From an uncultured Muribaculaceae bacterium (GTDB lineage: Bacteria; Bacillota_I; Bacilli_A; RF39; UBA660): a DNA stretch of 64,000 nucleotides. The notes beneath the pieces were generated by a model. The model was not told the DNA's origin, ran no database searches, and saw only the letters and a list, made by a program, of their open reading frames with translations. The first letter of the stretch is position 1. Each line of letters opens with the position of its first letter. The stretch spans positions 184,794 to 248,793 of the forward strand of contig CAZLKF010000001.1 of assembly GCA_964560085.1 (NCBI GenBank), read 5' to 3'. Shown one piece after another: positions 6,164 through 51,900 of this stretch. The translations under genes and the position numbers were made by a program.

Positions 6164-6595
6164 TTATTTTACCAACATTTTACTCTCATTTGTTATCTTC
6201 TTTAACCAAAAATAATCTTTATTATCAAAATCACATACAAAGATATTGTTATCAAATAAATTAAGGTATTTTAATACACTTGAAATACTGGCATTTGTGT
6301 ATAAAACAATACAACTTTCATTTATTGAAATTAACGACTTTTCATTGCCTTTGATAATTACACGGTTTTTAAATATTGTGTTGTTTGGAAATCTATCTTT
6401 AAAATATTGTAATATTTTATTTTTATCAAATTTCTTGCATAATTGATTATAAATAGAGAGGCCAAAATTTAACTTATTAGTATTTAAATAATATAAATTT
6501 TCTAGAATTGTATAAAGTGATTTTAAATCATCTGGAGTTTCTCCTTGATATTTTTTTTGAATTCGAAACAGATAAAATTTACGCATATTAATCAC
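6164..6595 (-). CDS. Hypothetical protein
   Basis: 143-aa ORF with no recognised motif; plausible spacing upstream of the ABC operon. Confidence 0.3.
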   Translation of the reverse strand: MINMRKFYLFRIQKKYQGETPDDLKSLYTILENLYYLNTNKLNFGLSIYNQLCKKFDKNKILQYFKDRFPNNTIFKNRVIIKGNEKSLISINESCIVLYTNASISSVLKYLNLFDNNIFVCDFDNKDYFWLKKITNESKMLVK

Positions 6596-8635: not shown

Positions 8636-8701
8636 TTTTTCATCCCCTATTTATTATTCAGTTTTATTATAACAAATTTTTAATAATAAATAAAGTTATT
8701 T

Positions 8702-8731
8702 ATAAATAAAAAAACGAATATAAAATTCGTT
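8702..8731 (-). terminator. Rho-independent terminator after the small SOS ORF
   Basis: Perfect hairpin AACGAAT-ATAAA-ATTCGTT (8713-8731) followed on the minus strand by TTTTTTATTTAT. Confidence 0.5.
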
Positions 8732-8876
8732 ATTGTAAGTTCAAAGTTAAAGTTGTTTTATCTAGGTTGTCATTTTTTGCTTCAATATTTGTCTGCGCTC
8801 CAGCAATAATATAGAGCGATATCAAGAAAATAATTGTAGCCCCCATTAAAAATTTACTTTGAAATATTTCTTTCAT
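8730..8876 (-). CDS. Small single-pass membrane protein (48 aa), putative SOS-induced cell-division inhibitor analogue
   Basis: Not in the ORF track (<60 aa). MKEIFQSKFLMGATIIFLISLYIIAGAQTNIEAKNDNLDKTTLTLNLQ; RBS AGGAG 8 nt upstream; minus-strand promoter TTGACA-17-TAAGAT with the LexA box inside the spacer; divergent from lexA. Confidence 0.45.
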   Translation of the reverse strand: MKEIFQSKFLMGATIIFLISLYIIAGAQTNIEAKNDNLDKTTLTLNLQ

Positions 8877-8908
8877 AATCCACTCTCCTTCTGACAATTA
8901 TATCTTAT

Positions 8909-8926
8909 CACGAACATTTATTCGTG
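8909..8926. promoter_or_regulatory. LexA operator (Cheo/SOS box)
   Basis: CACGAACATTTATTCGTG is a near-perfect palindrome matching CGAACRNRYGTTCG at 12/14. It lies between the divergent lexA gene and the small ORF, within the -35/-10 spacer of the minus-strand promoter. Confidence 0.6.
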
Positions 8927-8949
8927 TCAAGATGAAAACAAACAAATGT

Positions 8950-8978
8950 TTGACATTTGACATTTTTCATGTTATAAT
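8950..8978 (+). promoter_or_regulatory. sigma-A promoter of lexA
   Basis: TTGACA (8950-8955), 17-nt spacer, TATAAT (8973-8978), followed by RBS GGAGG at 8990. Confidence 0.55.
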
Positions 8979-9000: not shown

Positions 9001-9618
9001 ATGAATGAATTAACCAAAAGACAAAGTGAAGTTCTTAATTTTATTAAATCTTACATTGTTTCGCATGGTTATCCCCCAACTGTTAGAGAAATCGGTAGTG
9101 CTTTGGACATTTCATCACCAGCAACAGTACACGCTCATTTAGGTCATTTAGTTGAAAAAGGATTTATAAAAAAGGATGATTCTAAAAATCGTGCAATCGA
9201 GTTATTGGTTGAAAATGAGTATGTTGTAAAAGATGAAGATGTGGTTGAAGTTCCATTATTAGGGAAAATCACAGCTGGAAATCCAATTGAAGCAATTGAA
9301 AATCCTGATGAGTATTTTTCATTACCAACTTATTTGATTCCTAATAAACAAGAAGTATTTACTTTAAAAGTTTCTGGTAATAGTATGATTAATGTCGGTA
9401 TTTATGATGGCGACATTGTAATTGTTGAACGAAAGAATGTTGCCAATAATGGTGATATTGTAGTTGCTATGACTGATGAAAATGAAGTCACACTTAAAAC
9501 TTTCTATAAAGAAAATGGTTATATTCGTCTACAACCTGAAAATGATACAATGGAACCATTCATATTTCCTAATGTTACAATTCTTGGTAAAGCAATTGGT
9601 TTATATCGAAAATTATAA
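9001..9618 (+). CDS. lexA: LexA repressor (S24 peptidase)
   Basis: N-terminal wHTH (LTKRQSEVLNFIKSYIVSHGYPPTVREIG), Ala-Gly cleavage site region, and S24 domain VSGNSMINVGIYDGDIVIVE...K. The track ORF starts at 8932 but the true start is ATG 9001 with a GGAGG RBS. Confidence 0.9.
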   Translation: MNELTKRQSEVLNFIKSYIVSHGYPPTVREIGSALDISSPATVHAHLGHLVEKGFIKKDDSKNRAIELLVENEYVVKDEDVVEVPLLGKITAGNPIEAIENPDEYFSLPTYLIPNKQEVFTLKVSGNSMINVGIYDGDIVIVERKNVANNGDIVVAMTDENEVTLKTFYKENGYIRLQPENDTMEPFIFPNVTILGKAIGLYRKL

Positions 9619-11276: not shown

Positions 11277-13928
11277 TTAAATTGCTGAATATGTGATACG
11301 TGAAGAAATATCTTTACAACTTGCATAATTGGAAGTTCCACAAGAAGTTGTATACCAAGTTGAATCACTAGTATTCCAAGAACTACATCCGCAATGTGAA
11401 CAACTTGTACTATAAACGGATAAAGCATAGCTATTATAGCATTCGGAATTGCAACTATTCCATGCAAATCCAAGATCATTACACTCAGCATATAATTCGC
11501 CATATCCTCTTCTTCCAATATAGCAACCTTTAGATTGACATAATGTTCCCGAATTACAATAAGTACAAGCATTACATTGATTACATGTATAATGTTGATA
11601 CTCATTTCTGCTCACAATTTTTACCGAGCAACTATTAGTTTTTCCTTCAGCATCTTTTATATAAGCATTGTAGGTCCCAGCTGTAGAAATAGCTTTTGTA
11701 TTAGATGACGAATAGTTAATACCATCCCATGAATATGTAATACCACTTGTCTGCGATGGTGTAATTGTTAATGTTTTACTTGTTGTATAACCACTTGTAG
11801 TTGTTATGTTGCAAGTTGTAGTGGAAAATTGGGAAGCTGCACAAGAGGAAGATATTACGTAAGGTGAAGTACTTGTTCCATTGCCTGTAAATGCAGTTGT
11901 TCCTTTTAAATACACAGTGGGTCTTATACCACGTGCCTCTGTTGCCGTATTCAAACTAACAGATCCTGTTGTATTTTGATATCTAACACGTGTCGCTGAA
12001 TATGGATTTATAACCCAATATACACTAGATGAAATATACATCCAATTATTTGTCTTACAAGCGTATGGGGAATTATTAAAGACATTCCATGTTGATGAGT
12101 CATTACAACTTGTACTTGCTCTTAAATAATCAGTTACTGAAGGTAAAGCAACATTTTTACTAACTAATCTGCTTTTTTCATTATCAATAGTTGTTGATAT
12201 TGTAACTCCACTACTTGATGCGCCATAAGGAACTGTTCCCGCATCAAAACTATGTGTAACTAATTGACTTCGCGCAAGTTCTGTCATGGAACTATAGAAA
12301 GTTGTATCTAAAACCGTATTGATTTTCATTGAACTATAAGTTTCAAGATTACTACCACTCGTATGATATACATCATTTGAATAAATTCCATTATAAATTA
12401 TTTTATATGCACCATCAGGTTCAATCGAAATTATGCGCCATATTTGGCCATTATAACTAACATAATTGTTAGGATTAGCCCCTTTAAAATAATATCTGCC
12501 AATTGTTTTCGCATCAACATATAATCCATCACCACTTGTTACTATTGCCTGATCACCTAGTATTTTACTATATATGTTAAATGTTATTGTTTTACTAGTT
12601 GCGACATTTCCGACATTATCTGAAACATTGTAAGTAATTGTATAAGTACCAACACCATAATTTGCTAAATTTGTAATAGCAGTTGTACCATTTTTTATAG
12701 CTAATGTTCCATAATTAACTCCACTATAAGAATCACTTATATTGACATAATTTGATAAAGGAATAGTTGAACCTTTAGTTAAACATACCGAAGTGGTTGT
12801 CGGATTTATTACGGGCACTTCATTATCAAATCTAAATACCCCTGAACAAGAATCACTTTGATTACCAATTTTATCAGTTGCGTATATACATAAATACCAA
12901 TCACCATTGCCACTAGCTTTTGAAATAGTGTTTCCCGAGGTAAAATTAGTCCCACTTGCTGCACTCGTTCCAGATGTTTGGGTCCATAAATATTTTGTTG
13001 TAGCAACTCCTGTTAAATTATCAGATACAGTTACAATAGTAGATTGTGATTTACCATATGCATTATTGCCATTCGTATTTATAGTTATTGTTGGTGACTC
13101 GGAATCAACAGTTATTGATGAACTACTAGTAACAGCATTTCCATTACCTGCGGTATCAATAATAGATCCTGCTTTAAGCACTATCGAATTACTTCCATTT
13201 CCAAGATTACCAACTATAGTCAAAGTATATTTATAGCCATTTGTAATGGTTTCTTTTATTATATTGTTAATTGTAAACAAATTATTAGTTAAATTAAAAT
13301 CATTTGATGTCAAATCTTTGTTTTGAATATTAGAAGCATCTGTACATGTTAAACTAATGGTTGTCGTTGTTCCACTTTTAAGATATTGATTAGCAAAAGA
13401 ACTCCATATACAATTTGGAGGCGTAGAATCATAATTTAAAGAGAATGTTCCCACCAATATTTGTTTGCTATAGGGACTTGTCGCATTTAAATACAAATTT
13501 GATGTTACAGACCCTATACTATTTTTGGGTACAATAATTACATTAACAGTTGAAGTTGAATTAGTAGCAATGACACCATCTATAGTAGAAACATTTACAG
13601 AACCATTAAAGAATTGTAAATTTGTGTTAGTTAAACTCAAATTATATGAAGACGCGAAATTACTTGTATTTGTTATAACTATAGGAATTACTATCTGATT
13701 TTGAGCATTTGCTTGAAAACTATTAGTATTAACACTAGTAGTAAGCAAAAGATCTCTTGTTTTTAAAGAAATAACTTGAGTACTATTCATATTATAGTAA
13801 GCAGATATTTCTGACAAAGAAAAAAAACTGATAAATATAAATAGTAAGAGTCTTAAAAAAAATTTTATATTATAAGAATTATTTTTTATCATATTATAAT
13901 TATTGCCAATAATTGTTTGTTTAAACAA
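11277..13928 (-). CDS. Large secreted Ser/Thr/Asn-rich protein with Ig-like repeats and a Cys-rich C-terminal module
   Basis: Signal-peptide-like LRLLLFIFISFFSLSEISA, multiple beta-rich repeats, about 20 Cys in the last ~120 aa (YTCNQCNACTYCNSGTLCQSKGCY...CSHCGCSSW). No LPXTG motif or C-terminal TM. The start may be an internal Met. Confidence 0.6.
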   Translation of the reverse strand: MFKQTIIGNNYNMIKNNSYNIKFFLRLLLFIFISFFSLSEISAYYNMNSTQVISLKTRDLLLTTSVNTNSFQANAQNQIVIPIVITNTSNFASSYNLSLTNTNLQFFNGSVNVSTIDGVIATNSTSTVNVIIVPKNSIGSVTSNLYLNATSPYSKQILVGTFSLNYDSTPPNCIWSSFANQYLKSGTTTTISLTCTDASNIQNKDLTSNDFNLTNNLFTINNIIKETITNGYKYTLTIVGNLGNGSNSIVLKAGSIIDTAGNGNAVTSSSSITVDSESPTITINTNGNNAYGKSQSTIVTVSDNLTGVATTKYLWTQTSGTSAASGTNFTSGNTISKASGNGDWYLCIYATDKIGNQSDSCSGVFRFDNEVPVINPTTTSVCLTKGSTIPLSNYVNISDSYSGVNYGTLAIKNGTTAITNLANYGVGTYTITYNVSDNVGNVATSKTITFNIYSKILGDQAIVTSGDGLYVDAKTIGRYYFKGANPNNYVSYNGQIWRIISIEPDGAYKIIYNGIYSNDVYHTSGSNLETYSSMKINTVLDTTFYSSMTELARSQLVTHSFDAGTVPYGASSSGVTISTTIDNEKSRLVSKNVALPSVTDYLRASTSCNDSSTWNVFNNSPYACKTNNWMYISSSVYWVINPYSATRVRYQNTTGSVSLNTATEARGIRPTVYLKGTTAFTGNGTSTSPYVISSSCAASQFSTTTCNITTTSGYTTSKTLTITPSQTSGITYSWDGINYSSSNTKAISTAGTYNAYIKDAEGKTNSCSVKIVSRNEYQHYTCNQCNACTYCNSGTLCQSKGCYIGRRGYGELYAECNDLGFAWNSCNSECYNSYALSVYSTSCSHCGCSSWNTSDSTWYTTSCGTSNYASCKDISSRITYSAI

Positions 13929-18939: not shown

Positions 18940-19491
18940 TTAAATGTCAACTGTTCTAATATCCGTCAAAATCCAATCATAATCAACAGCGTTATATGTT
19001 CTTCCACAATAAGCGCACTTGCCATCATAATTAGCATTAATATTGGCACCACATCCTGGACACTTTTTAGCGTCGTGTTCCTTCTTCACTACTCTTTTTT
19101 TAGTAAATGTCAAATAATTATTTTTCATAATTCGACTTTCATCTTGACCAGCAACTATTTTTCCTTCACTAGACATTATATAATCAATTGCTTTTGAAAC
19201 AATTATTACTCTTATAATAAATTGATCTTCAAGAATATTAATATCTTCTATTTCCGTCGAAGTCACATTTAGTTGCTCATACATCTGAATTTGGTTATTT
19301 TTGATCAAATTATCAACATAAGTAACATATTTGTTGTAAACTTCATCGCTTAAGAAATGACGAACTTTTAACATATCTTTCATCATTATGGAAGTCATCA
19401 ACATAACAAATACATTATCTACTTTGGTTTTAAACATACTTGTTGAAAATGTTTCATCTAGTTTTTGTAATTCTTCTACCATTATTCCCAA
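18940..19491 (-). CDS. Tim44-like domain protein with C-terminal zinc ribbon (cytoplasmic paralog)
   Basis: C-terminal CPGCGANINANYDGKCAYCG zinc ribbon; domain homologous to the C-terminal half of the adjacent 280-aa protein. Confidence 0.4.
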   Translation of the reverse strand: MGIMVEELQKLDETFSTSMFKTKVDNVFVMLMTSIMMKDMLKVRHFLSDEVYNKYVTYVDNLIKNNQIQMYEQLNVTSTEIEDINILEDQFIIRVIIVSKAIDYIMSSEGKIVAGQDESRIMKNNYLTFTKKRVVKKEHDAKKCPGCGANINANYDGKCAYCGRTYNAVDYDWILTDIRTVDI

Positions 19492-20324
19492 CCTTGACCT
19501 TTCTTTTCTTTCTTTGTCATTATTAAGTCATGATGTGAAGAAACTATTGTTGAATTGCAATAACTACAAATATTTGATGCTTGATTTGCAATTGGTGCTC
19601 CACAATTTGGACATTTACCATTATTTGCGTCTTTTGTCATTGTAAATGTTAACTCATAATGCATCAACATTCGACGTGCATCAGTACCTTTGATAACTTT
19701 ATTCTGAGCATCAATAACATAATCTTTTTGGGCAACAACTAATTCTAGTTTTATTGTCACCAAATCATTATCCGCATATATATCAGTTATTGCAATGTCT
19801 CTTTTAATAAAATCACTCATTACATTTTTTTGATTCTTCATCTTCAATGTTTCAAGTTGCATTTTATACATATTAAACATTTCATCAGATGTATATTTTT
19901 GCATAGTTTCATAATCGAAATTAGTCCAAGCAATTTGAATATTTTTATAGATTTCAAAAACTTGATCTTGTATTTCGACAGGTGTTAGATCAGTTAACTG
20001 CTTAATTTTAATTGAATCTTCATAATGATTTGTAATCGAAGATTTATGTGACGAACTTTGAACATTGTTTTTATTTTTAGAATAAATTATAGCTACTATA
20101 ATTATGATTACCACCAATAAAACAAATGAGCCTGGGGTTAATTCGCCACCTGATCCTGAATAATCACCACCAAAGTCAAAGTCAAAATCACCACCACTAT
20201 AACCGCCACCATAATCACTATCCCAGCCTGAATCAGCTTTAACACTTAAAGCTAAAATTGAAAAGCAAGTCATTACTGATAATACAAATAGCAAAATTGT
20301 TGAATACTTATGATTTTTTTTCAT
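19482..20324 (-). CDS. Membrane-anchored Tim44-like domain protein with Gly/Asp-rich ectodomain and C-terminal zinc ribbon
   Basis: Signal/TM, then GWDSDYGGGYSGGDFDFDFGGDYSGSGG, TM VLLVVIIIIVAIIY, Tim44-like domain, then CPNCGAPIANQASNICSYC. Confidence 0.4.
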   Translation of the reverse strand: MKKNHKYSTILLFVLSVMTCFSILALSVKADSGWDSDYGGGYSGGDFDFDFGGDYSGSGGELTPGSFVLLVVIIIIVAIIYSKNKNNVQSSSHKSSITNHYEDSIKIKQLTDLTPVEIQDQVFEIYKNIQIAWTNFDYETMQKYTSDEMFNMYKMQLETLKMKNQKNVMSDFIKRDIAITDIYADNDLVTIKLELVVAQKDYVIDAQNKVIKGTDARRMLMHYELTFTMTKDANNGKCPNCGAPIANQASNICSYCNSTIVSSHHDLIMTKKEKKGQGWE

Positions 20325-21906
20325 TACTTCTTATCCCCAATCCATTAATATATTTCCTCTTTACAATGATGTAAATACAAAATCCGGCAATCAAGAAATT
20401 TTCTATTCCTAAAATAATTGACCAAATATTAATCTCATTTTTTATACTTGTTCGTGAAATAAAATAATTATTATTTTGATAAGCAATTTCAATATAACCA
20501 TCATTTACTTCTATATTATCATCTTGAAGTTTAATTTTCAAATCATAATAATAAAGTTTTGTTTTTAAAACATCCTGACCAACAAATATTTTTAATTTCG
20601 TTTTTGTTTTATTAGGATTATCATTTGAGAAATAAAATGCTTCTGCATAATTAGTGGCTTTTTCTATTTCATTTTGGTATATATTATTAAAATTCAAAGT
20701 TGTGATAAATTCTTCATCTGTTAAAATATCTGAATTTAATATATGCCAAGCATATACTAATTTATCATTTTCATAATACGAAAATATAACATTCTTATTA
20801 GAATTTTTTATCATTTCTAATTGTTCTTTAGTTATTACTTGATCTTTTAAAACCATTACTTCAATTGTTTCTTTTGTAGTCGTAGAACTAATAGAAGCAA
20901 ACTTATCAATCGTTATCTGTGGATTATCATCAGTTCTCTTTACCTTCAAAACATATTTGTTAATTGATCCATCCTCTGCTTCAACGGTAATTGTAATTTC
21001 ATTCATTCCAACTACTAAATCAGTATTACTTATCTCAACTTTTGACTTTGTATCATTAGCAATTGCTGTAACGTTTAATTTTGATATCTCGTTGTTAACT
21101 GATAAAGAATATTCGTTAACATTACTTACAAAATCTAATTCATAACCATCAATCGTCAAAGATTTTAAAGTATTATTATTTGATTGAGCAAAACTTAAAC
21201 CATTCTTATCTAAGCGAATGACATTCAAAGTATATGTTTTAGTTGAACCATTTTCAGCTGTAACAATAATCTTAAATGAATTATTGTAAATATTTAACTT
21301 CTTTGTACCTGTTCCTTTAACTGTTGCTAAGGCAGATGATGGTGAGGCAGTAATATTGATAGTTGAAACATCATTATTAACAGTAATTTTGTAATTTGTA
21401 GTTGAAGATTTAAAATTGGTAATTGTTTTACCATCAATTTTTAAGTCATCTAAATTATTATCAGTTGATTTCATTTTTATAGTTATTTTTGATGTCCCAC
21501 CACTTACAGTTTTCATATTGCTAGTTCCTGTGACATTTGTAATAGAAACTATGGTTGATTCCCCTATTTTAAAATTTGCTTTAGCTTTAAATTTTAAGGT
21601 TGCATAGGTAAATGTTCCACTTTTACCATCAGTTGAATCTACAACAATGTTTGTTCCAACTGTCAGATTAAAACCATTACTTCCGTTTGAAGACACTAGT
21701 TCCAATTTATCTTTATCATAATTTAGAGTCGCTTTCAAACCAATTAAATTACTTGCCGACGTTGCTTTAAAAGTTAAAGTAATAGTTCCTCCACTTGCAA
21801 TGCCTGTACTTCCACTGATAGATGTTGTAAAATCTGCTGCCATAATTTCGGGAATATTAAAATTAATAATAACAAGTAAAAAAATTATTTTTAAAAATCT
21901 TTTCAA
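20308..21906 (-). CDS. Membrane-anchored cohesin-like + cadherin-like repeat protein (mini-scaffoldin/anchor)
   Basis: Signal peptide; N-terminal ~135 aa with a cohesin-like pattern (GGTITLTFKATSAS...LNYDKDKLELVS...GTFTYATLKFKAK); three cadherin-like beta-sandwich repeats (LKSLTIDGYELDFVSNVNEYSLSV...); C-terminal TM IILGIENFLIAGFCIYIIV followed by KRK. Confidence 0.55.
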   Translation of the reverse strand: MKRFLKIIFLLVIINFNIPEIMAADFTTSISGSTGIASGGTITLTFKATSASNLIGLKATLNYDKDKLELVSSNGSNGFNLTVGTNIVVDSTDGKSGTFTYATLKFKAKANFKIGESTIVSITNVTGTSNMKTVSGGTSKITIKMKSTDNNLDDLKIDGKTITNFKSSTTNYKITVNNDVSTINITASPSSALATVKGTGTKKLNIYNNSFKIIVTAENGSTKTYTLNVIRLDKNGLSFAQSNNNTLKSLTIDGYELDFVSNVNEYSLSVNNEISKLNVTAIANDTKSKVEISNTDLVVGMNEITITVEAEDGSINKYVLKVKRTDDNPQITIDKFASISSTTTKETIEVMVLKDQVITKEQLEMIKNSNKNVIFSYYENDKLVYAWHILNSDILTDEEFITTLNFNNIYQNEIEKATNYAEAFYFSNDNPNKTKTKLKIFVGQDVLKTKLYYYDLKIKLQDDNIEVNDGYIEIAYQNNNYFISRTSIKNEINIWSIILGIENFLIAGFCIYIIVKRKYINGLGIRSNEKKS

Positions 21907-24900
21907 TTTAATTCCTCCAATCCAGCCAAAAATCTTCTTAAAATGACCAAATCCGTTATATCAACTTCTTTATCTTTATTTAAGTCAGCTGCAAGTAAAT
22001 TTTGATCATTCAATATTTCTATTCCTGCTAAATGTCTTCTCAAAATAACTAAATCTGTTATATCAACTTCCTCGTCAGCATTAACATCTGCTAGTTTAAT
22101 ACTACTCCATTTTGCATAAAGCGTAATGTTGTTTGTTGGTATATACTGAATATCTTTTCCAACAAAATTTGTCAAATCCGCATCACTATACCAACCTATA
22201 AAATTTTTAGTTGAATCAAATGAACTAATGTCTGGTAAAGTAAGTGACGTCATCTGCCAGGTAGCTGTTAATTTACTGTTTTTAAAGCCAAAAGTATAAT
22301 TTGAATCCGCTAATGAACCAGATCCTGTTAAAATCCATTTTAAGAAAGTATGTTGAATAGGTGTTTTCATATTTTCTTTGTTTAAAACATTATAAACAAA
22401 TTCAACTTCAGTTGCATATACTGGATTGGCAATTGCAACAACCTCCAAAGAATTTTTTGTATATTTAAATTCATTTAAATCATTATATGTTCCTTTATTA
22501 GGATCGATTTCTAAATCAAAATAAACGGAATCATCAATAACATAAACCAATACTCCTGCAGCATAACGTTCTCTTAAGGCAGTAACAACAATTCTAGCAA
22601 CTCCATTACCAATGCCAGTAATTACTCCATTATCAACAGTGGCAACAGAAGAATCACTACTGCTCCACGTATATTTTGGAACTCGCATGAAATTTTTTAA
22701 AGTTGGTGTTATAGCAACTGTATTTTCCCCATTTTTATATAAAGTTACTTGAGATTTATCAAGTGTTAAGCCTGCATTTGTATCTTTAATAACCAAATCA
22801 ATTTGATCGCGACAATTATCGACTTCAATTGTAATTGTTACATTCCCCGCTTTTAAAGCTTTAACTACTCCATTTTGATCAACTGTTGCAATACTTGGAT
22901 TACTACTTGACCAAGATAAGTTACTAATTGCTGATCCTACTGGTGATACTTCAAAATTCAATTGCAGTTCATTAAAGACATTTCGATATATTGTTTGAGT
23001 TTCCTCTATAATATCGACCAGTCCGACTGTCACAATTGGTCCAACAATAATGGGGATACTCCGTTCAATAACATCATTTACAATCATTGTTATTGTTGCA
23101 TTGCCAATATGTACTGCTTCAATTAAACCTGTGTTAGAAACTGTTGCAATACTTGAATTACTACTTTTAAATTCTAATGACGTAATTGTTAATTTAGAAT
23201 CAATTACATAAGACAACTGATAACTAGGAAGTTCATTTATATCAAGTTCTACCAATTCACCATCTAATTCAACTTCAAAAAAGTTTTCATTAAATGTTAA
23301 GAAATAATTCTCTTTTTGAAAAGTGCTAGGAAATTTTATTATGCTATTAGAAGTCCCATTGATTACATAATTGTCAACCATTAAACTACGTTCACCATAT
23401 TTGTTAAAAAGATAAAGAGGAAGTTTTGTTCCTGAACTAATATTACGATATATAAATTGATGTTCGAAATTTGAACCCGTATACGTAAATTCACTTTCCT
23501 CTGTATAGATAGTCTCACTATTATTAGTCGTAAAGGCATTTAGTTCAGTACCAATAATTCCATTCAAACTTACTACTTTAATGGAAAACTCTGAATCATT
23601 TAATTCAATATCATCAATATCAACTGTTGCTAAACCAGGATAATTTGTTGTAACTGTTTTTATTAATTGATACCCACTAGTTGATGAATTTTTAACATAA
23701 ACCTCATATTTGCCATTAATTGATTCATGTGTAAAATTAACTCGTACCATTTTTTCAGAAAAATCTTTTGCTTTATCATAAGTTACTTCTATGGAATTTC
23801 GATTAGTAACAATACTTCCACTTTTTGTATAATCATAAATATTGTCCCAATTACGATACTTGACTTCTGTCACACCATTTACATCATAATATAATGACGA
23901 ATAAGCAAGATAAGTATAAGGGACGTAAGAACCCCAAGAATTTTTTAATATCCAAGCCCCAACACCAGCATAATCATCATTCCAACCAATAATAGACATT
24001 GCATGATAATTATACCCTTTATTACAATCCTCAGTTTCGTTTATCATATTGAGTTCATAATTATAACAAGTTCCCGCTTGATCGACAGCTGGTGACAATG
24101 CTGAAACATAAAGTGAACCATAATTCTTTATATGATCTTTTAACACTGCTCGATATTGTTCTTGCGTTATATTATCTTCATAATTTGCACTACCATAAAT
24201 ATTATAACCAGTTACTTGATATGCGACATTTTCAGAGTTTATAACTTCACTAAGATTTCGTTGATTTGATGAAGTGTCATAGTTACCCCAAATGTTTTCT
24301 TCAATTGGAGCCACCCCACTATTCAAATAAGTGGAAGCCAAGTTAAAATTACCACCACTCCCTAGCTCATGATTAGTTATCGAGTACGGGTTTTTTACTT
24401 CTTTGATTGAATTATCCGAAATCAAATAATCAATCTGACGCTCTGCAAAGTTAACTTGGGTGGTTTCCAACTGAGATACTAAAATGTTTGTTTCAATTGA
24501 TGAATAAGTAGCAAAAGCCCAACAAAGACCAAGTGTTGATTGGTTTTTAATTTTTGTGACATAATTGTCATCAGCCAAATTGTAGTAAGATGATGTAGAA
24601 GTAGAAATGTTATTGTCATATGTATAGTCCCACGTATAAGTTTCTGGTATAACTTCAACTCTTTTTTGATCAGCCGGTGACATTGCTAAATAATCAACAT
24701 ATTTAGGGTTTAAATATAATTGACCATTTTTCTTATTTTTTTCAGTTAAAACTTTTTTCCCGGATTCAGCTTGCTTTAAAACATATTCCTTAGCTGAGTC
24801 TGGAAGATAACTATAAGCTTCATTTTTTAAATCAATAGTTACTTTATATTCTAAGTCATTCCAACAAAAAGAAATTATTCCTAGAATAATTGTCAAAAGT

Positions 24901-24929
24901 GGCAAAAAAATCAAAACTTTCTTCTTCAT
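21903..24929 (-). CDS. Secreted C1 (papain-family) cysteine peptidase with Big_2 repeats and C-terminal type-I dockerin
   Basis: Signal peptide; catalytic Cys motif NQSTLGLCWAFAT and His region HAMSIIGWND...NSWG; several Big_2 Ig-like domains; C-terminal duplicated Ca-binding segments DVNADEEVDITDLVILRRHLAG / ADLNKDKEVDITDLVILRRFLAG. Confidence 0.7.
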   Translation of the reverse strand: MKKKVLIFLPLLTIILGIISFCWNDLEYKVTIDLKNEAYSYLPDSAKEYVLKQAESGKKVLTEKNKKNGQLYLNPKYVDYLAMSPADQKRVEVIPETYTWDYTYDNNISTSTSSYYNLADDNYVTKIKNQSTLGLCWAFATYSSIETNILVSQLETTQVNFAERQIDYLISDNSIKEVKNPYSITNHELGSGGNFNLASTYLNSGVAPIEENIWGNYDTSSNQRNLSEVINSENVAYQVTGYNIYGSANYEDNITQEQYRAVLKDHIKNYGSLYVSALSPAVDQAGTCYNYELNMINETEDCNKGYNYHAMSIIGWNDDYAGVGAWILKNSWGSYVPYTYLAYSSLYYDVNGVTEVKYRNWDNIYDYTKSGSIVTNRNSIEVTYDKAKDFSEKMVRVNFTHESINGKYEVYVKNSSTSGYQLIKTVTTNYPGLATVDIDDIELNDSEFSIKVVSLNGIIGTELNAFTTNNSETIYTEESEFTYTGSNFEHQFIYRNISSGTKLPLYLFNKYGERSLMVDNYVINGTSNSIIKFPSTFQKENYFLTFNENFFEVELDGELVELDINELPSYQLSYVIDSKLTITSLEFKSSNSSIATVSNTGLIEAVHIGNATITMIVNDVIERSIPIIVGPIVTVGLVDIIEETQTIYRNVFNELQLNFEVSPVGSAISNLSWSSSNPSIATVDQNGVVKALKAGNVTITIEVDNCRDQIDLVIKDTNAGLTLDKSQVTLYKNGENTVAITPTLKNFMRVPKYTWSSSDSSVATVDNGVITGIGNGVARIVVTALRERYAAGVLVYVIDDSVYFDLEIDPNKGTYNDLNEFKYTKNSLEVVAIANPVYATEVEFVYNVLNKENMKTPIQHTFLKWILTGSGSLADSNYTFGFKNSKLTATWQMTSLTLPDISSFDSTKNFIGWYSDADLTNFVGKDIQYIPTNNITLYAKWSSIKLADVNADEEVDITDLVILRRHLAGIEILNDQNLLAADLNKDKEVDITDLVILRRFLAGLEELN

Positions 24930-41198: not shown

Positions 41199-42707
41199 TT
41201 AATTAATAGGTTCAGTACTAACCCAATAATATTCACCAGTAGTATTTTTAGCAAATGTATGTTTATACTTTTTTGCATAGTTTTTTACTGAATATACTTC
41301 CTTTATTTCGTCTTCGTTCACTTTTACAACATTGCCCGTCGTTTTATCCGTGACTAAACCTTTGTCAATACATTTTATATCACCGATTTTTTCAACAGAA
41401 TCTGAATATGCATAAATTGTTCCAATTATAGAGTCTTTTTGGCAATAATCATATTCATAGTCTTCATCTATTAAAGTGGTTAGTTTTGGTTGGTAGTTAT
41501 CATGAATTTTTACATATCCTATTGAATCTTCACTATATAAGTAAATGTAATTACCTTCTTCTATAGCAGATGTTATAGTTGGTGATGTATATTCACATAT
41601 CTCCGTTTTTTCTTGAACACCACCTACTACACCATCATATAAACCAAGGCCACTAAATCCCGAACCATAATTAAAATATCCTGTTATAACTGTTAATTCT
41701 TTCGGCATTTTTATTGATGATGTATTATAAATTTTAACTAATGTTTTTTTTAACTCTTCCAAAGTTATAGATGGTTTATCTTCACAAACATATTTAGAAT
41801 TGTTTAAAATAGTACTGTAATAAGAAATAAGCAATAAGTTTTCATATGACAAATCTTTATATGTTACTTTTTTTGATTGATAAGTTGTAAATGGTAAATT
41901 GTAATATGTTGATGAAATATAAGTCATTAACTTTTTGACTGTAGCATTTGTTAATGATAATTCCTTTATTGGCGCAACAACAATGATTGTCCTTGTTGCA
42001 GTTGCAACCTCAGTTGCACTATTAGTAACTGAATAAGTCAATGTATATTTGCCGGCAACATTGCTATTTACCTTACCAGTTATTACTACATTTGATGATA
42101 AGTCTCCTTCTTTTGTATCTTTAGCAATATATCCTGGTTCAACATACGTTTCATCTTTATTAATGACCGCAATTTCTTCACCTTTTAATTCTAATGTTAA
42201 TGTTGTTTCTTTTGATACAACAGTTACTTTTCTCGTCAATGATGAGGTTAAAGAATCACTGTCAGTGACACTATATAAAATAGTATAGAATCCTGCTTTT
42301 TCAGAATTAACCGTTCCTTCAATTACAACTTTTCCTGTAATATCACCATCTTTATCATCATTGGCTTGATATCCAGGGTCAACGTAAGCTTCCCCTTCAG
42401 TTAAAGTAATTGAATTTTCACCAATTAATACTAATGTTGGTGCCACTTTGGATACTGGTTGTTGTTCTTTCTTTGATGCTAAAATCAAATATGTAACTAC
42501 TCCAGCTAATATTAAAACTAATATTGCTAAGATTATAACTAATAAATTATTATTGTTTCGACGATTATTCTCTTCACTTTGAGGTTCAAAATGATCTTTT
42601 TGATTATTACTATAGTCTTCAATTTTTACTTCATTTGTTGAAACATTCGTTATATTTTCTTGTACCTTTTCATTTTTTTCAATATTTGTATTTTGTTTTT
42701 CTCCCAT
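41199..42707 (-). CDS. Type-II membrane-anchored surface protein, two DUF5011-type Ig-like domains + variable C-terminal domain (paralog A)
   Basis: Likely start MGEKQN at 42707 (RBS GGAG); Asn-rich cytoplasmic tail, TM LLVIILAILVLILAGVVTYLILA, two Ig-like modules (YVDPGY...DGD(I/L)...GTVNS..AG.Y.(I/L)(L/T)YSVT), then a divergent C-terminal domain. Confidence 0.6.
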   Translation of the reverse strand: MGEKQNTNIEKNEKVQENITNVSTNEVKIEDYSNNQKDHFEPQSEENNRRNNNNLLVIILAILVLILAGVVTYLILASKKEQQPVSKVAPTLVLIGENSITLTEGEAYVDPGYQANDDKDGDITGKVVIEGTVNSEKAGFYTILYSVTDSDSLTSSLTRKVTVVSKETTLTLELKGEEIAVINKDETYVEPGYIAKDTKEGDLSSNVVITGKVNSNVAGKYTLTYSVTNSATEVATATRTIIVVAPIKELSLTNATVKKLMTYISSTYYNLPFTTYQSKKVTYKDLSYENLLLISYYSTILNNSKYVCEDKPSITLEELKKTLVKIYNTSSIKMPKELTVITGYFNYGSGFSGLGLYDGVVGGVQEKTEICEYTSPTITSAIEEGNYIYLYSEDSIGYVKIHDNYQPKLTTLIDEDYEYDYCQKDSIIGTIYAYSDSVEKIGDIKCIDKGLVTDKTTGNVVKVNEDEIKEVYSVKNYAKKYKHTFAKNTTGEYYWVSTEPIN

Positions 42708-42740
42708 ATAAATCTCCAAATCTAATACAAAATTAAACTT
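41953..42740. repeat. Direct repeat copy 1 (~0.79 kb, ~98-99% identical to 43417..44204)
   Basis: Covers the 5' end plus RBS of paralog A; the offset to copy 2 is exactly 1464 bp; the identical antisense 79-aa ORFs 42049..42288 and 43513..43752 in the track are a by-product of the repeat. Confidence 0.85.
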
Positions 42741-42773
42741 CACATATTATATTACATTAAAGTTATGCAACTA

Positions 42774-44171
42774 CTATTTTACAATTTCACTACTTACAAA
42801 ATAATAATCATTGTTATCATTATATTTCTTAAACGTATGCTTATAATAAGGAACACTTACATCTTCATATATTGTTTCATTTAAAATTGAATATAGGTTG
42901 TTATCTGATGGTGGATAGCAATATGTTTCACCTATTTTAATTTTGAGTTCACTATCAGCATAGGCATATTTGATTACACCCTCAGAATCACAATTATCAA
43001 AAGTTCCTCCTTGCTCAACATTTAAATTAGTATTTTTTTCTTCGACATACTTATCATAAATATATATATAATCGCCATCTTGAATAGCAGCTGACAATAA
43101 AGATGTATCTAAAGTTAATCCTTTGTTACCATTTTGCCACTTCTTTGTAGCATTGTCATAGGTTATATCTGTTTGATCAAATAAAACTTTAGTAGTAGTT
43201 GGAATACTAATGTTTGTTACATTATACATTTTTTTTAAACAGTCTGTAAGTTCTTTATTTGTCATTTCCGAATCGTTGTCGCAACTATAAAAAGCAGCAG
43301 CGAGCATTGCTTCTTTTTTTAATTCTTTATAAGTGATTTTTTTAGTTTGATGATTATTAAGCGTTCCAGAATAATAATTAACAATACTATACAATTTTTT
43401 TACTAATTGATCATTAATTGATAATTCCTTTATTGGCGTAACAACAATGATTGTTCTTGTTGCAGTTGCAACCTCAGTTGCACTATTAGTAACTGAATAA
43501 GTCAATGTATATTTGCCGGCAACATTGCTATTTACCTTACCAGTTATTACTACATTTGATGATAAGTCTCCTTCTTTTGTATCTTTAGCAATATATCCTG
43601 GTTCAACATACGTTTCATCTTTATTAATGACCGCAATTTCTTCACCTTTTAATTCTAATGTTAATGTTGTTTCTTTTGATACAACAGTTACTTTTCTCGT
43701 CAATGATGAGGTTAAAGAATCACTGTCAGTGACACTATATAAAATAGTATAGAATCCTGCTTTTTCAGAATTAACCGTTCCTTCAATTACAACTTTTCCT
43801 GTAATATCACCATCTTTATCATCATTGGCTTGATATCCAGGGTCAACGTAAGCTTCCCCTTCAGTTAAAGTAATTGAATTTTCACCAATTAATACTAATG
43901 TTGGTGCCACTTTGGATACTGGTTGTTGTTCTTTCTTTGATGCTAAAATCAAATATGTAACTACTCCAGCTAATATTAAAACTAATATTGCTAAGATTAT
44001 AACTAATAAATTATTATTGTTTCGACGATTATTCTCTTCACTTTGAGGTTCAAAATGATCTTTTTGATTATTACTATAGTCTTCAATTTTTACTTCATTT
44101 GTTGAAACATTCGTTATATTTTCTTGTACCTTTTCATTTTTTTCAATATTTGTATTTTGTTTTTCTCCCAT
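42774..44171 (-). CDS. Type-II membrane-anchored surface protein, two DUF5011-type Ig-like domains + variable C-terminal domain (paralog B)
   Basis: Start MGEKQN at 44171 (RBS GGGAG); the first ~260 aa are identical to paralog A except for one or two substitutions; the C-terminal domain is only distantly similar (YKHTF, YIYIY, YYFVSSE). Confidence 0.6.
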   Translation of the reverse strand: MGEKQNTNIEKNEKVQENITNVSTNEVKIEDYSNNQKDHFEPQSEENNRRNNNNLLVIILAILVLILAGVVTYLILASKKEQQPVSKVAPTLVLIGENSITLTEGEAYVDPGYQANDDKDGDITGKVVIEGTVNSEKAGFYTILYSVTDSDSLTSSLTRKVTVVSKETTLTLELKGEEIAVINKDETYVEPGYIAKDTKEGDLSSNVVITGKVNSNVAGKYTLTYSVTNSATEVATATRTIIVVTPIKELSINDQLVKKLYSIVNYYSGTLNNHQTKKITYKELKKEAMLAAAFYSCDNDSEMTNKELTDCLKKMYNVTNISIPTTTKVLFDQTDITYDNATKKWQNGNKGLTLDTSLLSAAIQDGDYIYIYDKYVEEKNTNLNVEQGGTFDNCDSEGVIKYAYADSELKIKIGETYCYPPSDNNLYSILNETIYEDVSVPYYKHTFKKYNDNNDYYFVSSEIVK

Positions 44172-44204
44172 ATAAATCTCCCATTCTAATATAATTTTTT
44201 TCAT
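43417..44204. repeat. Direct repeat copy 2
   Basis: Same as above; only a few SNPs at the 3' boundary (GCGCAAC vs GCGTAAC; TGTCCTT vs TGTTCTT). Confidence 0.85.
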
Positions 44205-44262
44205 TTAGGTCCAAATCAACATATCATCAGCCTAACTTTGTATTTTTCTTCTTATTTAATTA

Positions 44263-45912
44263 TTAATTTTTTACAACTACCGCTGTTCCACTGCTATAAT
44301 CAACAATAACTGATTTATTCATATCATTAGCAAAGTACCTTGGAATACTTTTACTAAAATGAGTTATACAATTCACATAACTACCACCTAATCTTGATAC
44401 TGAGTTTGTAATAATCAATTGTTTAGCACTCAATATTTTTGCACTAGCATCAGTAACGCCACAAGATGAATAAGCATGATGTGGTATTTTAACAACATCA
44501 ACTTGGCCAATTACCTTGATAATTGGGGTCAAGATAGCTGATGTATATGAATCGGCGCCTAAGAATGTTTTGATATTACCTATTTGAATATATTGAACAA
44601 CTGAATTAACATTCTCATTTCCACCTTCATAATCTGATTGATTCATTCTTTGAACTGTATTATATAAAGTAATTTTCATTGCATCAAGATTAAAAGTATA
44701 TCCTTCACTTAATGTTTCGATATAAGTAATAGGAATCTTTCTATCAGTAGCTGCTGTTATAAACCAATTATAACGATTTCTTTGAGCATCACTACAACCT
44801 GCATCTTTACATAAATATGTTTTTATATAAACTTTCTTTACATTAATTCCACTTTTAATTATAGTTGCCCCACCACCAATATGATCAGCATGATTGTGGG
44901 TTATAAGAATAAAGTCCAAAGTGTTAACATTAAGACTTTCTAAATAGTTTTTAACTCTGTTCATATCGGCAGTATTAGTTAAACCAGTATCAATCATAGC
45001 ATAATGACCATTTGATTCTAATAAAATTGCATCGGCTGAATCTTGTACTTGTTTTATAAAATGAATTTTTATAGAATTTTTGACGGTAATTAAAGCTTTC
45101 GCTTCAAAATCACCATCAACTGTAATTGCTTTTATGGTTGCCGTGCCTTCTTTTAAAGCTTTTATTTTTCCTGACTTTACACTTACAACACTCTCATTGC
45201 TACTAGACCAAACAACACTTTTATTGCTAGCATCACTAGGAATGATTGTTGTCTTAATTGTTTTTTCATCGCCAACATACATTAAAATATTTTGTTCATC
45301 TAATGCTATTCCTGTTACTCTTCTTAAAACATTTACAGAGCAAGTAGTTACTATTTTCTCATCACTAGTTTTTGCAGTAATTATTGTTGTTCCCTTAGCT
45401 ATGCCTCTTATAATTCCATTTTCTACAGTAGCTATATTTTTATTGCTACTAGTCCACACCAATTCTTTATTGGTTGCATTATTAGGTATAATAGTTGCGG
45501 TTAATTTTATAGTTTCATCTTCACCTATACTGACTTTTTGACTACTAAGTTTGATTTCTGTTACTAAAACTTCTTTCTTTATTACGATGACACTAAATGT
45601 CAAAACTTGATCATTTAGATTGTTAGTTATTTCGATAATTGCGTTTCCTTCATTTATAGCTCTTACATTGCCTTGATAATCAGCAATTGCAATATTAGGA
45701 TTATGACTTTTATATGATAATTTATATTGTTTTCCCCCAGTTTTAGCAATAACTTTAATCTGTTCAATTTGATTGGTTTCTAAAGTTGTATATGTTTTTT
45801 CCAAAGAAAATTCATATGCTGTATTAGGATTGTTAGCAATTATTAAATATATAGCACAACCAATTAATGCTATTAATACTCCAGCACAAATTCTAAAAAT
45901 TTTTTCACTCAT
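44263..45912 (-). CDS. Membrane-anchored surface protein: three Big_2 Ig-like domains + C-terminal MBL-fold (ComEC-like) metallo-hydrolase
   Basis: N-terminal TM ICAGVLIALIGCAIYLII; Big_2 repeats (VTEIKLSSQKVSIGEDETIKLTATIIPNNATNKELVWTSSN...); MBL motif ILITHNHADHIGGG. Confidence 0.65.
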   Translation of the reverse strand: MSEKIFRICAGVLIALIGCAIYLIIANNPNTAYEFSLEKTYTTLETNQIEQIKVIAKTGGKQYKLSYKSHNPNIAIADYQGNVRAINEGNAIIEITNNLNDQVLTFSVIVIKKEVLVTEIKLSSQKVSIGEDETIKLTATIIPNNATNKELVWTSSNKNIATVENGIIRGIAKGTTIITAKTSDEKIVTTCSVNVLRRVTGIALDEQNILMYVGDEKTIKTTIIPSDASNKSVVWSSSNESVVSVKSGKIKALKEGTATIKAITVDGDFEAKALITVKNSIKIHFIKQVQDSADAILLESNGHYAMIDTGLTNTADMNRVKNYLESLNVNTLDFILITHNHADHIGGGATIIKSGINVKKVYIKTYLCKDAGCSDAQRNRYNWFITAATDRKIPITYIETLSEGYTFNLDAMKITLYNTVQRMNQSDYEGGNENVNSVVQYIQIGNIKTFLGADSYTSAILTPIIKVIGQVDVVKIPHHAYSSCGVTDASAKILSAKQLIITNSVSRLGGSYVNCITHFSKSIPRYFANDMNKSVIVDYSSGTAVVVKN

Positions 45913-50449: not shown

Positions 50450-51898
50450 TTATTCCGAAACAATTTTCTTTTTACGTTTCTTCTTTTTAAGTAAAAATGC
50501 CAAAATCCCTATTAATAAAAATTGAACAATAACTAATATTTCTAATATAGTAACATAAAGACCATTTTCTTTTTTTTCTGAACTTGATTCTTCAATTGGT
50601 TGCTCTTTTTTATCATCATCTTGTTTTTCGTCTTTTAAAATTTTAATTCTATATTCTTTATTAGTTCCATCCTCAGCAGTTATAGAAATTGTAATTATAC
50701 TATCATTTTTTAGGTTTTCATTTCCCGTAATAATATAATTTGCTTTCTCGCTTTCTAAAGTAACATTAATATCAAGTTTTTCTTCTTCGTTAATTTTTAA
50801 AGAATAATCTAAAGTGTTATTATCGAATGTCAAATCATAATTACTAATTTTTAAATCTGTGATATTAGTATTATCACTTAATATTTCTTTGATTCCTGCC
50901 CTTGTAATATTTAAAGTATATGTATTAATAGTTTTATTTTCGGCAGATACTTTAATTAATATTTTATTCAAACCTTCTTTTAATGACACTTCTCTATTTC
51001 CATAGTTGGTTACATAACTAGAAGTAGTATCTGTTAATGTGGACGTTATAGTTACTTTTTCAACTTCATTTAAAACCGTTAAATTATAGTTGTTGACACT
51101 TGAACTAAAATTTATTATTCCCTCACTTAACGACAATGTTTTTAAAGTGTTTACTTTGCTGCGGTTATCTTCTCTCTTAATATTCAAAGTATAGATTTTT
51201 TTTACACCTGATGCGCCAGTAACATTTACTTTAAATACATTCATTCCATAAGCTAAAGTTTTATTTCCAACCGAACCACTAATTGTTGCATTTGCATCTG
51301 TTGCCGTTGCTTCAATCAAAACACTTGTTGTTGTGGCTGGGAATGTTGCATTATAGCTAGTTTTATCACCGGCAAATCCAGCTATTTCTTCACCATTTAA
51401 ACTTAATGATGAAAGTGTGTTGACACTTGATAAAATATTTAATGAAAGAGTTCCACCAGTAACACTGACAGAATCACCATTCTTGTCAGTTGCAACAGGT
51501 TTAGTAAGTGTAATATTTGTATTGCCAAAAGCAGCATTATTATTGACTTTAAAAACTAATTTAACGATATTTTTTGATGTATCACTAATTAATTCATCAT
51601 AATTTAAGTTACCATAACTGAATTTTTTTCCATTTGTCACAGTAGCAAATGTTGTATAAGAAGCTGATAAAAGTTTTGTTTGACTACTCAAAGTTAAAAC
51701 ATCTGCATCCCAGCTAACAATTCCGTCGACTCCAGAAATAGTCGCTTCTGAACTAGTACGATTTAAATTTATGTAGATAGTTACATCTTCACCACGAGCA
51801 GCTTTTGTTGATCCAGTAGGTTTTAATGACATAGCTTCGATGTTTTTTAAACCAAGTAGCATTAGAAAAATAAGAAAAATTATTTTTTTACATCTCAT
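50450..51898 (-). CDS. Membrane-anchored cohesin-like + cadherin-like repeat protein (second mini-scaffoldin/anchor)
   Basis: Signal peptide; N-terminal cohesin-like module (GEDVTIYINLNRTS...WDADVLTLSS...IVKLVFKVNNNAAFG); cadherin-like repeats (LSSLSLNGEEIAGFAGDKTSYNATF..); C-terminal TM followed by KKKKRKKK. Confidence 0.55.
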   Translation of the reverse strand: MRCKKIIFLIFLMLLGLKNIEAMSLKPTGSTKAARGEDVTIYINLNRTSSEATISGVDGIVSWDADVLTLSSQTKLLSASYTTFATVTNGKKFSYGNLNYDELISDTSKNIVKLVFKVNNNAAFGNTNITLTKPVATDKNGDSVSVTGGTLSLNILSSVNTLSSLSLNGEEIAGFAGDKTSYNATFPATTTSVLIEATATDANATISGSVGNKTLAYGMNVFKVNVTGASGVKKIYTLNIKREDNRSKVNTLKTLSLSEGIINFSSSVNNYNLTVLNEVEKVTITSTLTDTTSSYVTNYGNREVSLKEGLNKILIKVSAENKTINTYTLNITRAGIKEILSDNTNITDLKISNYDLTFDNNTLDYSLKINEEEKLDINVTLESEKANYIITGNENLKNDSIITISITAEDGTNKEYRIKILKDEKQDDDKKEQPIEESSSEKKENGLYVTILEILVIVQFLLIGILAFLLKKKKRKKKIVSE

Positions 51899-51900
51899 AA

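Follow-up and report, generated by a model that had tools for sequence, protein, structure and literature searches.

A putative LexA-controlled membrane peptide gene divergent from lexA in uncultured gut Bacilli: a candidate SOS division inhibitor

We describe here a small gene that lies back to back with lexA in a 64,000-nucleotide (nt) stretch of contig CAZLKF010000001.1, referred to below in its full length as the window, and that encodes a predicted single-pass membrane peptide of 48 amino acids (aa). An earlier reading of the sequence, hereafter the original prediction, had reported a minus-strand open reading frame (ORF) of 48 aa with an AGGAG ribosome-binding site divergent from lexA, and both were recovered at the coordinates it gave. 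The ORF starts 124 nt upstream of lexA on the opposite strand and sits between lexA and tkt. This agrees with the proposal that it occupies the slot of known inhibitors beside lexA, as yneA lies between the same two genes in Bacillus subtilis. The features of the locus, in window coordinates, are as follows.

8700..8731, minus strand: terminator-like hairpin, stem at 8713-8731, AACGAAU-UUUAU-AUUCGUU followed by U7, overlapping the stop codon
8730..8876, minus strand: coding sequence of the small peptide, 48 codons for 48 aa, stop codon included in the coordinates, predicted single-pass membrane peptide
8890..8885, minus strand: Shine-Dalgarno sequence AAGGAG, 8 nt before the ATG, as read from the sequence
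8902..8907, minus strand: -10 hexamer TAAGAT of the peptide promoter, with TGn in front (extended -10)
8909..8926: operator 1, putative Cheo-type LexA box CACGAACATTTATTCGTG, palindrome CACGAA-N6-TTCGTG, core CGAACATTTATTCG at 8911-8924
8925..8930, minus strand: -35 hexamer TTGACA of the peptide promoter, directly abutting operator 1
8939-8952: operator 2, putative variant LexA box CAAACAAATGTTTG, a perfect palindrome whose last three bases begin the lexA -35
8950..8978, plus strand: lexA promoter, TTGACA, 17 nt, TATAAT, 12/12 consensus matches, TG extension
9001..9618, plus strand: lexA, 205 aa, TIGR00498 (E=2.4e-68), PF01726 (LexA_DNA_bind) and PF00717 (Peptidase_S24)

The peptide begins with MKEIFQSK, continues with FLMGATIIFLISLYIIAGA and closes with QTNIEAKNDNLDKTTLTLNLQ, its C-terminal end reading ...LNLQ. 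In a mechanical list of ORFs the frame begins at a TTG (8897); it is the ATG at 8876, however, that lies 8 nt from the Shine-Dalgarno sequence, a distance shared by relatives. The description of the ORF as unannotated holds in one respect only, since gene finders do call it in public assemblies (P0001) and no source gives it a name. Compared with the closest strain (L081, peptide 85% identical) it displays 14 synonymous and 7 non-synonymous changes (binomial P=4e-6), with a ratio of non-synonymous to synonymous substitution rates (dN/dS) of 0.08, and thereby the substitution pattern that the original prediction had called for. The dN/dS values of 22 further close pairs within the peptide family range from 0.12 to 0.52. 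Because these values are low, the small ORF is a real protein-coding gene under purifying selection. The hairpin terminator that had been reported downstream is present but weak (-5.1 kcal/mol, z=-1.9), fails the G+C rule of the scanner and is not conserved throughout the family; in L081 the stem is kept and the loop changed. An intrinsic terminator was rejected as a family trait, since apart from the window and L081 it is convincing in no more than a few loci.

The promoter of the small gene consists of TTGACA, a 17-nt spacer and TAAGAT, amounting to 10/12 consensus matches. These elements had been proposed before; TATAAT, offered at the same time as an alternative -10, would need a 22-nt spacer and is an unlikely -10. 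The Cheo-like palindrome noted between lexA and the ORF at 8909-8926 is confirmed as well, and its core lies one mismatch from the Firmicute LexA consensus CGAAC-N4-GTTCG and takes up nearly the whole spacer of the peptide promoter. It is the sole match with at most one mismatch in the window, against 0.20 expected. At the two-mismatch level there are 7 matches, where 5.7 would be expected; five of them lie outside the lexA region, each within an ORF, and by this two-mismatch scan no further LexA-regulated (SOS) gene is visible within the 64 kb. From the placement of operator 1 we consider it very probable that LexA represses the small-peptide gene. Operator 2, which the original prediction had missed, is weaker and farther from the consensus than operator 1. 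In 80 of 81 sequences it is found as a 14-mer ending in the TTG of the TTGAC -35 (consensus YRAACAWWTGTTTG), several of the relatives' copies being degenerate, and this position marks it as the putative autoregulation site of lexA.

The translated LexA keeps GKITAGNP (A92-G93), SGNSM (S128) and VTLKTF (K166). We take A92-G93 to be the cleavage site and assign Ser128 and Lys166 by correspondence with LexA of Escherichia coli and B. subtilis; on this assignment the predicted protein keeps the motifs expected of a RecA-cleavable repressor.

In order to place the locus among its relatives we consider 80 loci obtained from a LexA scan, all of them from uncultured gut metagenome-assembled genomes, with LexA proteins 65-83% identical to that of the window and labels such as Bacilli, 'Tenericutes', Mycoplasmatota, Candidatus Coprosoma and Pelethosoma, among others. 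A small ORF with a Cheo box divergent from lexA, which the original prediction had suggested looking for in related genomes, occurs in 72 of them. In these 72 lexA-anchored loci the ORF encodes 28-64 aa (median 47) with a single transmembrane (TM) segment and starts on the opposite strand at a distance of 111-149 nt upstream of lexA; its frame, length, Shine-Dalgarno sequence and ATG are kept. The encoded peptides all begin with a lysine-rich stretch some 8 residues long, followed by one hydrophobic segment and an acidic tail of some 21 residues. Along the peptide strand the layout is nearly universal: TTGACA, the 14-nt box, 3 nt, TAnnAT, about 20 nt, the Shine-Dalgarno sequence and the ATG. 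Look-ups that started from the protein agree, with the small gene 120-132 nt from a divergent lexA in 6 of 6 cases.

The distribution of the LexA boxes follows that of the gene. An operator fills the promoter spacer in 72/72 loci that have the small ORF, and the operator 1 module is missing in all seven informative loci that do not have it, where the lexA-proximal box is retained. Since the box module tracks the presence and absence of the ORF, operator 1 serves, on this comparative evidence, the small gene, and operator 2 serves lexA. Across the 620 kb that make up the 80 related loci, all 56 near-consensus boxes (at most one mismatch) lie within 260 bp upstream of lexA, and the remaining ~600 kb contain no such box. 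The outer neighbours of the pair vary between tkt, polA, monogalactosyldiacylglycerol (MGDG) synthase and rpsB, and the conserved unit is the pair of lexA and the small gene. A leader peptide or upstream ORF for tkt was therefore excluded, as the downstream gene changes among these four and the pairing with lexA remains constant.

Three further observations concern this intergenic region and its surroundings. Box-to-box distances, taken from the mismatch scan for the window and loci L001-L080, give a centre-to-centre spacing of 27-29 bp in most loci or of 38-39 bp, with singles at 35 and 50 bp; the two main classes lie about one helical turn apart, which suggests that the relative face of the operators or of the divergent promoters is constrained. 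At three of the 72 loci with the small ORF (L027, L032 and L039) an inserted ORF of 60-62 aa (MEYYTINDIQILTGY...RRMEIEL, without Pfam match), some 140-325 nt upstream of lexA, separates the TM-peptide gene from its LexA-box promoter and would give a two-gene SOS operon. In other genomes (L087, 2501-2692, and many of L028-L080) polA starts ~30 nt past the stop codon of the small ORF. Because no terminator intervenes, transcription from the SOS promoter may there run on into polA, which encodes DNA polymerase I.

Searches with the single peptide return next to nothing. The window peptide has no Pfam match at E<=10 and no NCBIfam match, and a word-indexed protein search retrieves no more than the peptide itself and its counterpart in one strain (85% identity); family profiles were therefore needed. 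A profile of the positional orthologues recovers 79 proteins in the word-indexed database, and a second profile, built from recovered database proteins, recovers 301 cluster representatives at 50% identity, 33-97 aa in length. All 301 clusters are unnamed, and where a label exists it is only 'hypothetical protein [Bacilli bacterium]'. The apparent lengths of 60-97 aa arise because starts were called too early (P0011, P0032, P0043, P0057, P0069, P0082, P0119 and P0186), so that the operator and the -35 region are translated into recurrent strings such as ...LTRTNVFD... or ...SNKCF.... The window-like subgroup follows the pattern MKEMLKSK..LGVSYI..LE..., and larger subgroups read ...IYxLFVLYLLFVSDRVEKLD... 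and ...KKYGVIxLLYLVIxGGxLLLNERxRLLN...; hhalign links the window-like and the distant subgroups with a probability of 81% (E=1.2e-5), the SosA control remaining below 1%. Conservation is highest at a Tyr within the TM segment and at an Arg and a Leu just beyond it (at least 90%), and many tails end in an alternating hydrophobic pattern, as in ISVNA, IIINQ or LTLNLQ. By these profile comparisons the peptide belongs to an unnamed family across uncultured gut Bacilli which appears unrelated in sequence to the known occupants of the lexA slot.

The original prediction had likened the topology to that of YneA and SosA, with the N-terminus inside, one TM helix and a short tail outside, and both charge bias and AlphaFold2 (AF2) models favour this arrangement. 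The window peptide has one hydrophobic segment at residues 9-27, an N-terminal flank with 0.33 K+R per residue and a net charge of +2, and a tail with a net charge of -1; among the 72 members, charge bias favours an inside N-terminus in 62. The AF2 monomer models, which are silent on the target, show the window peptide and a distant member each as one long helix, with a predicted local distance difference test (pLDDT) score of ~95 in the TM segment and of 55-76 in the tail. The predicted topology is thus an N-terminus in the cytoplasm, one TM helix and a short acidic C-terminal tail outside.

Genes next to lexA encode SOS division inhibitors in Bacillus, Listeria, Staphylococcus, Mycobacterium and Corynebacterium; these inhibitors have a single TM segment and an external C-terminus in common but are little alike in sequence, and most of them carry a LysM domain, SosA and DivS being the ones that do not (PMC6851548). 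The TM helix of YneA docks on TM7 of FtsW and its LysM domain is needed for inhibition, and ChiZ, SosA and SidA have likewise been modelled on FtsW, SosA via an extended helix (PMC13396833, 2026). The window peptide has in common with the class of YneA, SosA, DivS and ChiZ that its gene is adjacent to and divergent from lexA, that a putative LexA operator lies in its promoter, and that a single TM segment with an external C-terminus is predicted.

YneA of B. subtilis and Listeria provides a close parallel. Its gene is likewise divergent from lexA, under Cheo-box control and located between lexA and tkt, and the protein likewise combines a short cytoplasmic N-terminus, one TM helix as the likely docking element and a C-terminus outside. 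YneA, however, is about twice as long and ends in a LysM domain that is essential for inhibition, whereas the window peptide ends in a 21-residue tail, and yneB and ynzC of the YneA locus are not present at the window locus. As the original prediction had held, the peptide has neither a LysM domain nor a family match: the Pfam scan at E<=10 finds no LysM in the window peptide, and none of 67 family members matches a LysM-containing YneA model of NCBIfam. Membership of YneA was ruled out for want of LysM, the 21-residue tail being shorter than such a domain. The surroundings of the pair offer an observation of their own. An ORF after tkt (window 6164-6595, minus strand) has a weak match to SirA (PF10747, E=9e-4, below the cut-off), and in relatives UPF0154/YneF stands next to the SirA-like ORF (L081 5297-5993). 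The region lexA-small gene-tkt-SirA-like ORF thus mirrors, in distant gut Bacilli with small genomes, the yne neighbourhood of B. subtilis, whose gene order we take to be lexA-yneA-yneB-ynzC-tkt-sirA-yneF.

SosA of Staphylococcus, divergent from lexA, LexA-controlled, without LysM and with a single TM segment and an external C-terminus, resembles the peptide as well. Both have a conserved stretch just after the TM segment and an alternating hydrophobic tail end (...GKVFALIN in SosA, ...TTLTLNLQ here), although SosA measures 77 aa with a tail of ~47 residues and the window peptide 48 aa with a tail of 21. For the sequence comparison, real SosA proteins were retrieved via fragments rebuilt from published primers, and three resources were used: the NCBIfam model NF041581, the precomputed annotation of PF28057, which the scanned Pfam set did not include, and hhalign. 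NF041581 recognises true SosA at E=1.9e-29 and is matched by neither the window peptide nor any of the 67 family members. The precomputed PF28057 annotation is present on SosA and reads '-' on all 81 family proteins. With a SosA alignment made of S. aureus sequences only, hhalign gives probabilities of 0.4% (A1 vs A5) and 0.2% (A3 vs A5). Membership of SosA was ruled out by these negatives, and because all three agree the two families appear unrelated in sequence. The suggestion that the peptide might be a new member of the YneA/SosA family did therefore not hold; as far as sequence comparison can tell, it represents a family of its own, unrelated to them in sequence, that occupies the same slot in gene order and regulation. 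Two minor likenesses may be added: an A-x-A-like motif stands right after the TM segment in both S. aureus SosA (P0224; VSA|H) and the window peptide (AGA|Q), and the last 10 residues of SosA affect its stability through the protease CtpA. The motif and the hydrophobic C-terminus common to both may represent a shared turnover signal rather than homology.

Outside this slot, a further comparison is with SidA of Caulobacter crescentus, like the peptide a minimal SOS effector of little more than one TM helix. SidA has 29 aa, is LexA-controlled and binds FtsW, an illustration that late division can be blocked through FtsW by so small a peptide. It differs in coming from a Gram-negative alphaproteobacterium, in being encoded away from lexA, in its shorter length and in a nearly absent external tail; the comparison was made by description only.

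Taken together, position, regulation and architecture point, by analogy, to division inhibition as the probable role of the peptide, a reading that we hold with moderate confidence. The more specific form of it, which we favour to much the same degree, is an SOS-induced membrane peptide that delays division, probably via the septal synthase FtsW, and acts in the manner of YneA, SosA and SidA. In an undamaged cell, LexA dimers on operators 1 and 2 would block RNA polymerase at both divergent promoters. DNA damage would activate RecA, LexA would cleave itself at A92-G93, and both promoters would fire. The mRNA, with its short leader of ~20 nt, would be translated into the 48-aa peptide, which would span the membrane with one TM helix, leaving the lysine-rich N-terminus in the cytoplasm and the 21-residue acidic tail outside. 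The TM helix might then dock on the septal peptidoglycan synthase, most likely FtsW, where a juxtamembrane helical extension would hamper septal wall synthesis and delay division until repair is done. After repair, LexA would repress the promoter again and the peptide would be cleared, with an extracytoplasmic protease as the probable agent. As to the plausibility of the target, genes for a Mur ligase, FemAB, a PASTA kinase and a GH25 muramidase are present in the window, and the organism therefore builds a peptidoglycan wall.

Several points weigh against division inhibition. LexA-controlled single-TM peptides can be membrane toxins, as TisB and DinQ are in E. coli. The window contains no FtsW gene, so that the target is only presumed, from the wall genes, to be present in this genome. 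There is no detectable homology to SosA by the HMM (hidden Markov model) search or by hhalign (<1%), and no LysM. The tail evolves fast, and members are very divergent outside a loose R/K-x-x-L-E/D motif. The small gene is missing in 7 of 79 informative related genomes and is therefore dispensable in some lineages. Finally, YneA's TM domain by itself reaches the septum in B. subtilis and division is not blocked (PMC13396833), so that a peptide with a 21-residue tail would need a different inhibitory element.

Among the alternatives, the one that survives best, unlikely as it appears to us, is an SOS membrane toxin of the TisB/DinQ type, which would dissipate the proton motive force and cause growth arrest or persistence with no specific block of the divisome. 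The anatomy is shared, as TisB and DinQ are LexA-repressed peptides of fewer than 50 aa with one TM helix. Moreover, operator 1 is nearer the consensus than operator 2, suggesting a tight repression that would fit a toxic product, and one of 67 family members has a marginal match to the YonT type I toxin (E=0.1). TisB and DinQ, however, are paired with a small RNA antitoxin and have long structured leaders, as is typical of type I toxins; the leader here is ~20 nt long and the Shine-Dalgarno sequence directly accessible. The two promoters take up the 125-bp intergenic region and appear to leave neither room nor signal for an antitoxin small RNA, and the antisense strand, from which an RNA might yet arise, carries only a weak, promoter-like site (9/12). 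Unlike TisB and DinQ, the window peptide also keeps a polar external tail, whose 21 residues, together with the charged juxtamembrane motif, are under purifying selection and point to a specific partner, not to general damage of the membrane. The validated products of the yneA/sosA slot beside lexA are, furthermore, division inhibitors.

Slightly less probable still is that the small membrane protein under LexA control serves another purpose during DNA damage, for instance the modulation of a transporter, a protease or envelope stress signalling, and is no checkpoint effector. The sequence names no target, no Pfam or NCBIfam family is matched, and many small membrane proteins modulate larger complexes, all of which would be compatible with such a role. 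It has no positive support, however, and would leave unexplained the tie to lexA across changing neighbourhoods, which is the hallmark of the division inhibitors of Gram-positive bacteria.

The A-x-A-like motif raises the question of export. Residues 1-27 might constitute a Sec signal peptide that is cut after A-G-A, releasing the 21-residue QTNIEAKNDNLDKTTLTLNLQ as a signal or effector once SOS is induced, a scenario that we regard as improbable. The window peptide does display both an n-region and an h-region as well as an A-x-A-like site (IIAGA|QT), I-[SG]-[AG] occupies the equivalent place in several close relatives, and SosA, with V-S-A after its TM segment, is labelled 'putative secreted protein' by one source; YneA is reported to be cleaved and released, although as a step of its inactivation. 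The motif of small residues is nevertheless poorly kept: the nearest species-level relative has T-G-V, and no plausible cleavage site exists in the large distant subgroups (LLLNERFRLLN, LFVSDRVEKLD). The highest conservation (Y, R and L, at least 90%) lies in or just after the TM segment, which is unexpected for a disposable signal peptide. A variant to which we give even less credence holds that the 21-residue acidic peptide, cut at A-G-A|Q and released after DNA damage, serves as an extracellular alarm or competition signal in the gut community; this would suit the window-like subgroup, but the larger subgroups have no cleavage motif, which speaks against such a role for the family at large. 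That the frame is open by mere chance next to a lexA operator array, for which one might cite the short length, the AT-rich genome and the want of a database family, is effectively excluded by selection and conservation: dN/dS is 0.08-0.5 in 23 pairs, 72 genomes preserve start and frame, the operator does not occur without the ORF, and the family comprises 301 clusters.

To a specialist, the peptide is a useful and expected kind of result rather than a surprise. If it is indeed a division inhibitor, it would supply the missing SOS checkpoint effector for an order-level lineage of uncultured gut Bacilli, and it would constitute a fourth sequence-unrelated solution in the lexA slot and, at ~47 aa, the smallest Gram-positive one. 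With only a TM helix and a short charged juxtamembrane stretch, it would then also offer a minimal model of how the septal synthase formed by FtsW and its penicillin-binding protein (PBP) can be shut down without LysM, a question that the YneA-FtsW study of 2026 left open for SosA and SidA (PMC13396833). The unnamed family of ~301 clusters could be annotated, many of its public starts being too early, and the conserved promoter with the operator in its spacer could act as a ready-made SOS reporter for these organisms.

Elsewhere in the window, large secreted or surface proteins are encoded at 11277-13928, 20308-24929, 41199-45912 and 50450-53892, with Big_2, cadherin-like, Bact_surface_Ig-like, DUF285/LRR (leucine-rich repeat) and dockerin domains. 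The region at 21903-24929 encodes a papain-family protease of 1008 aa with a dockerin domain, and the dockerins hint at surface assemblies of the cohesin type. Two adjacent ORFs of 183 and 280 aa (18940-20324, minus strand) both match the Tim44-like domain PF04280.

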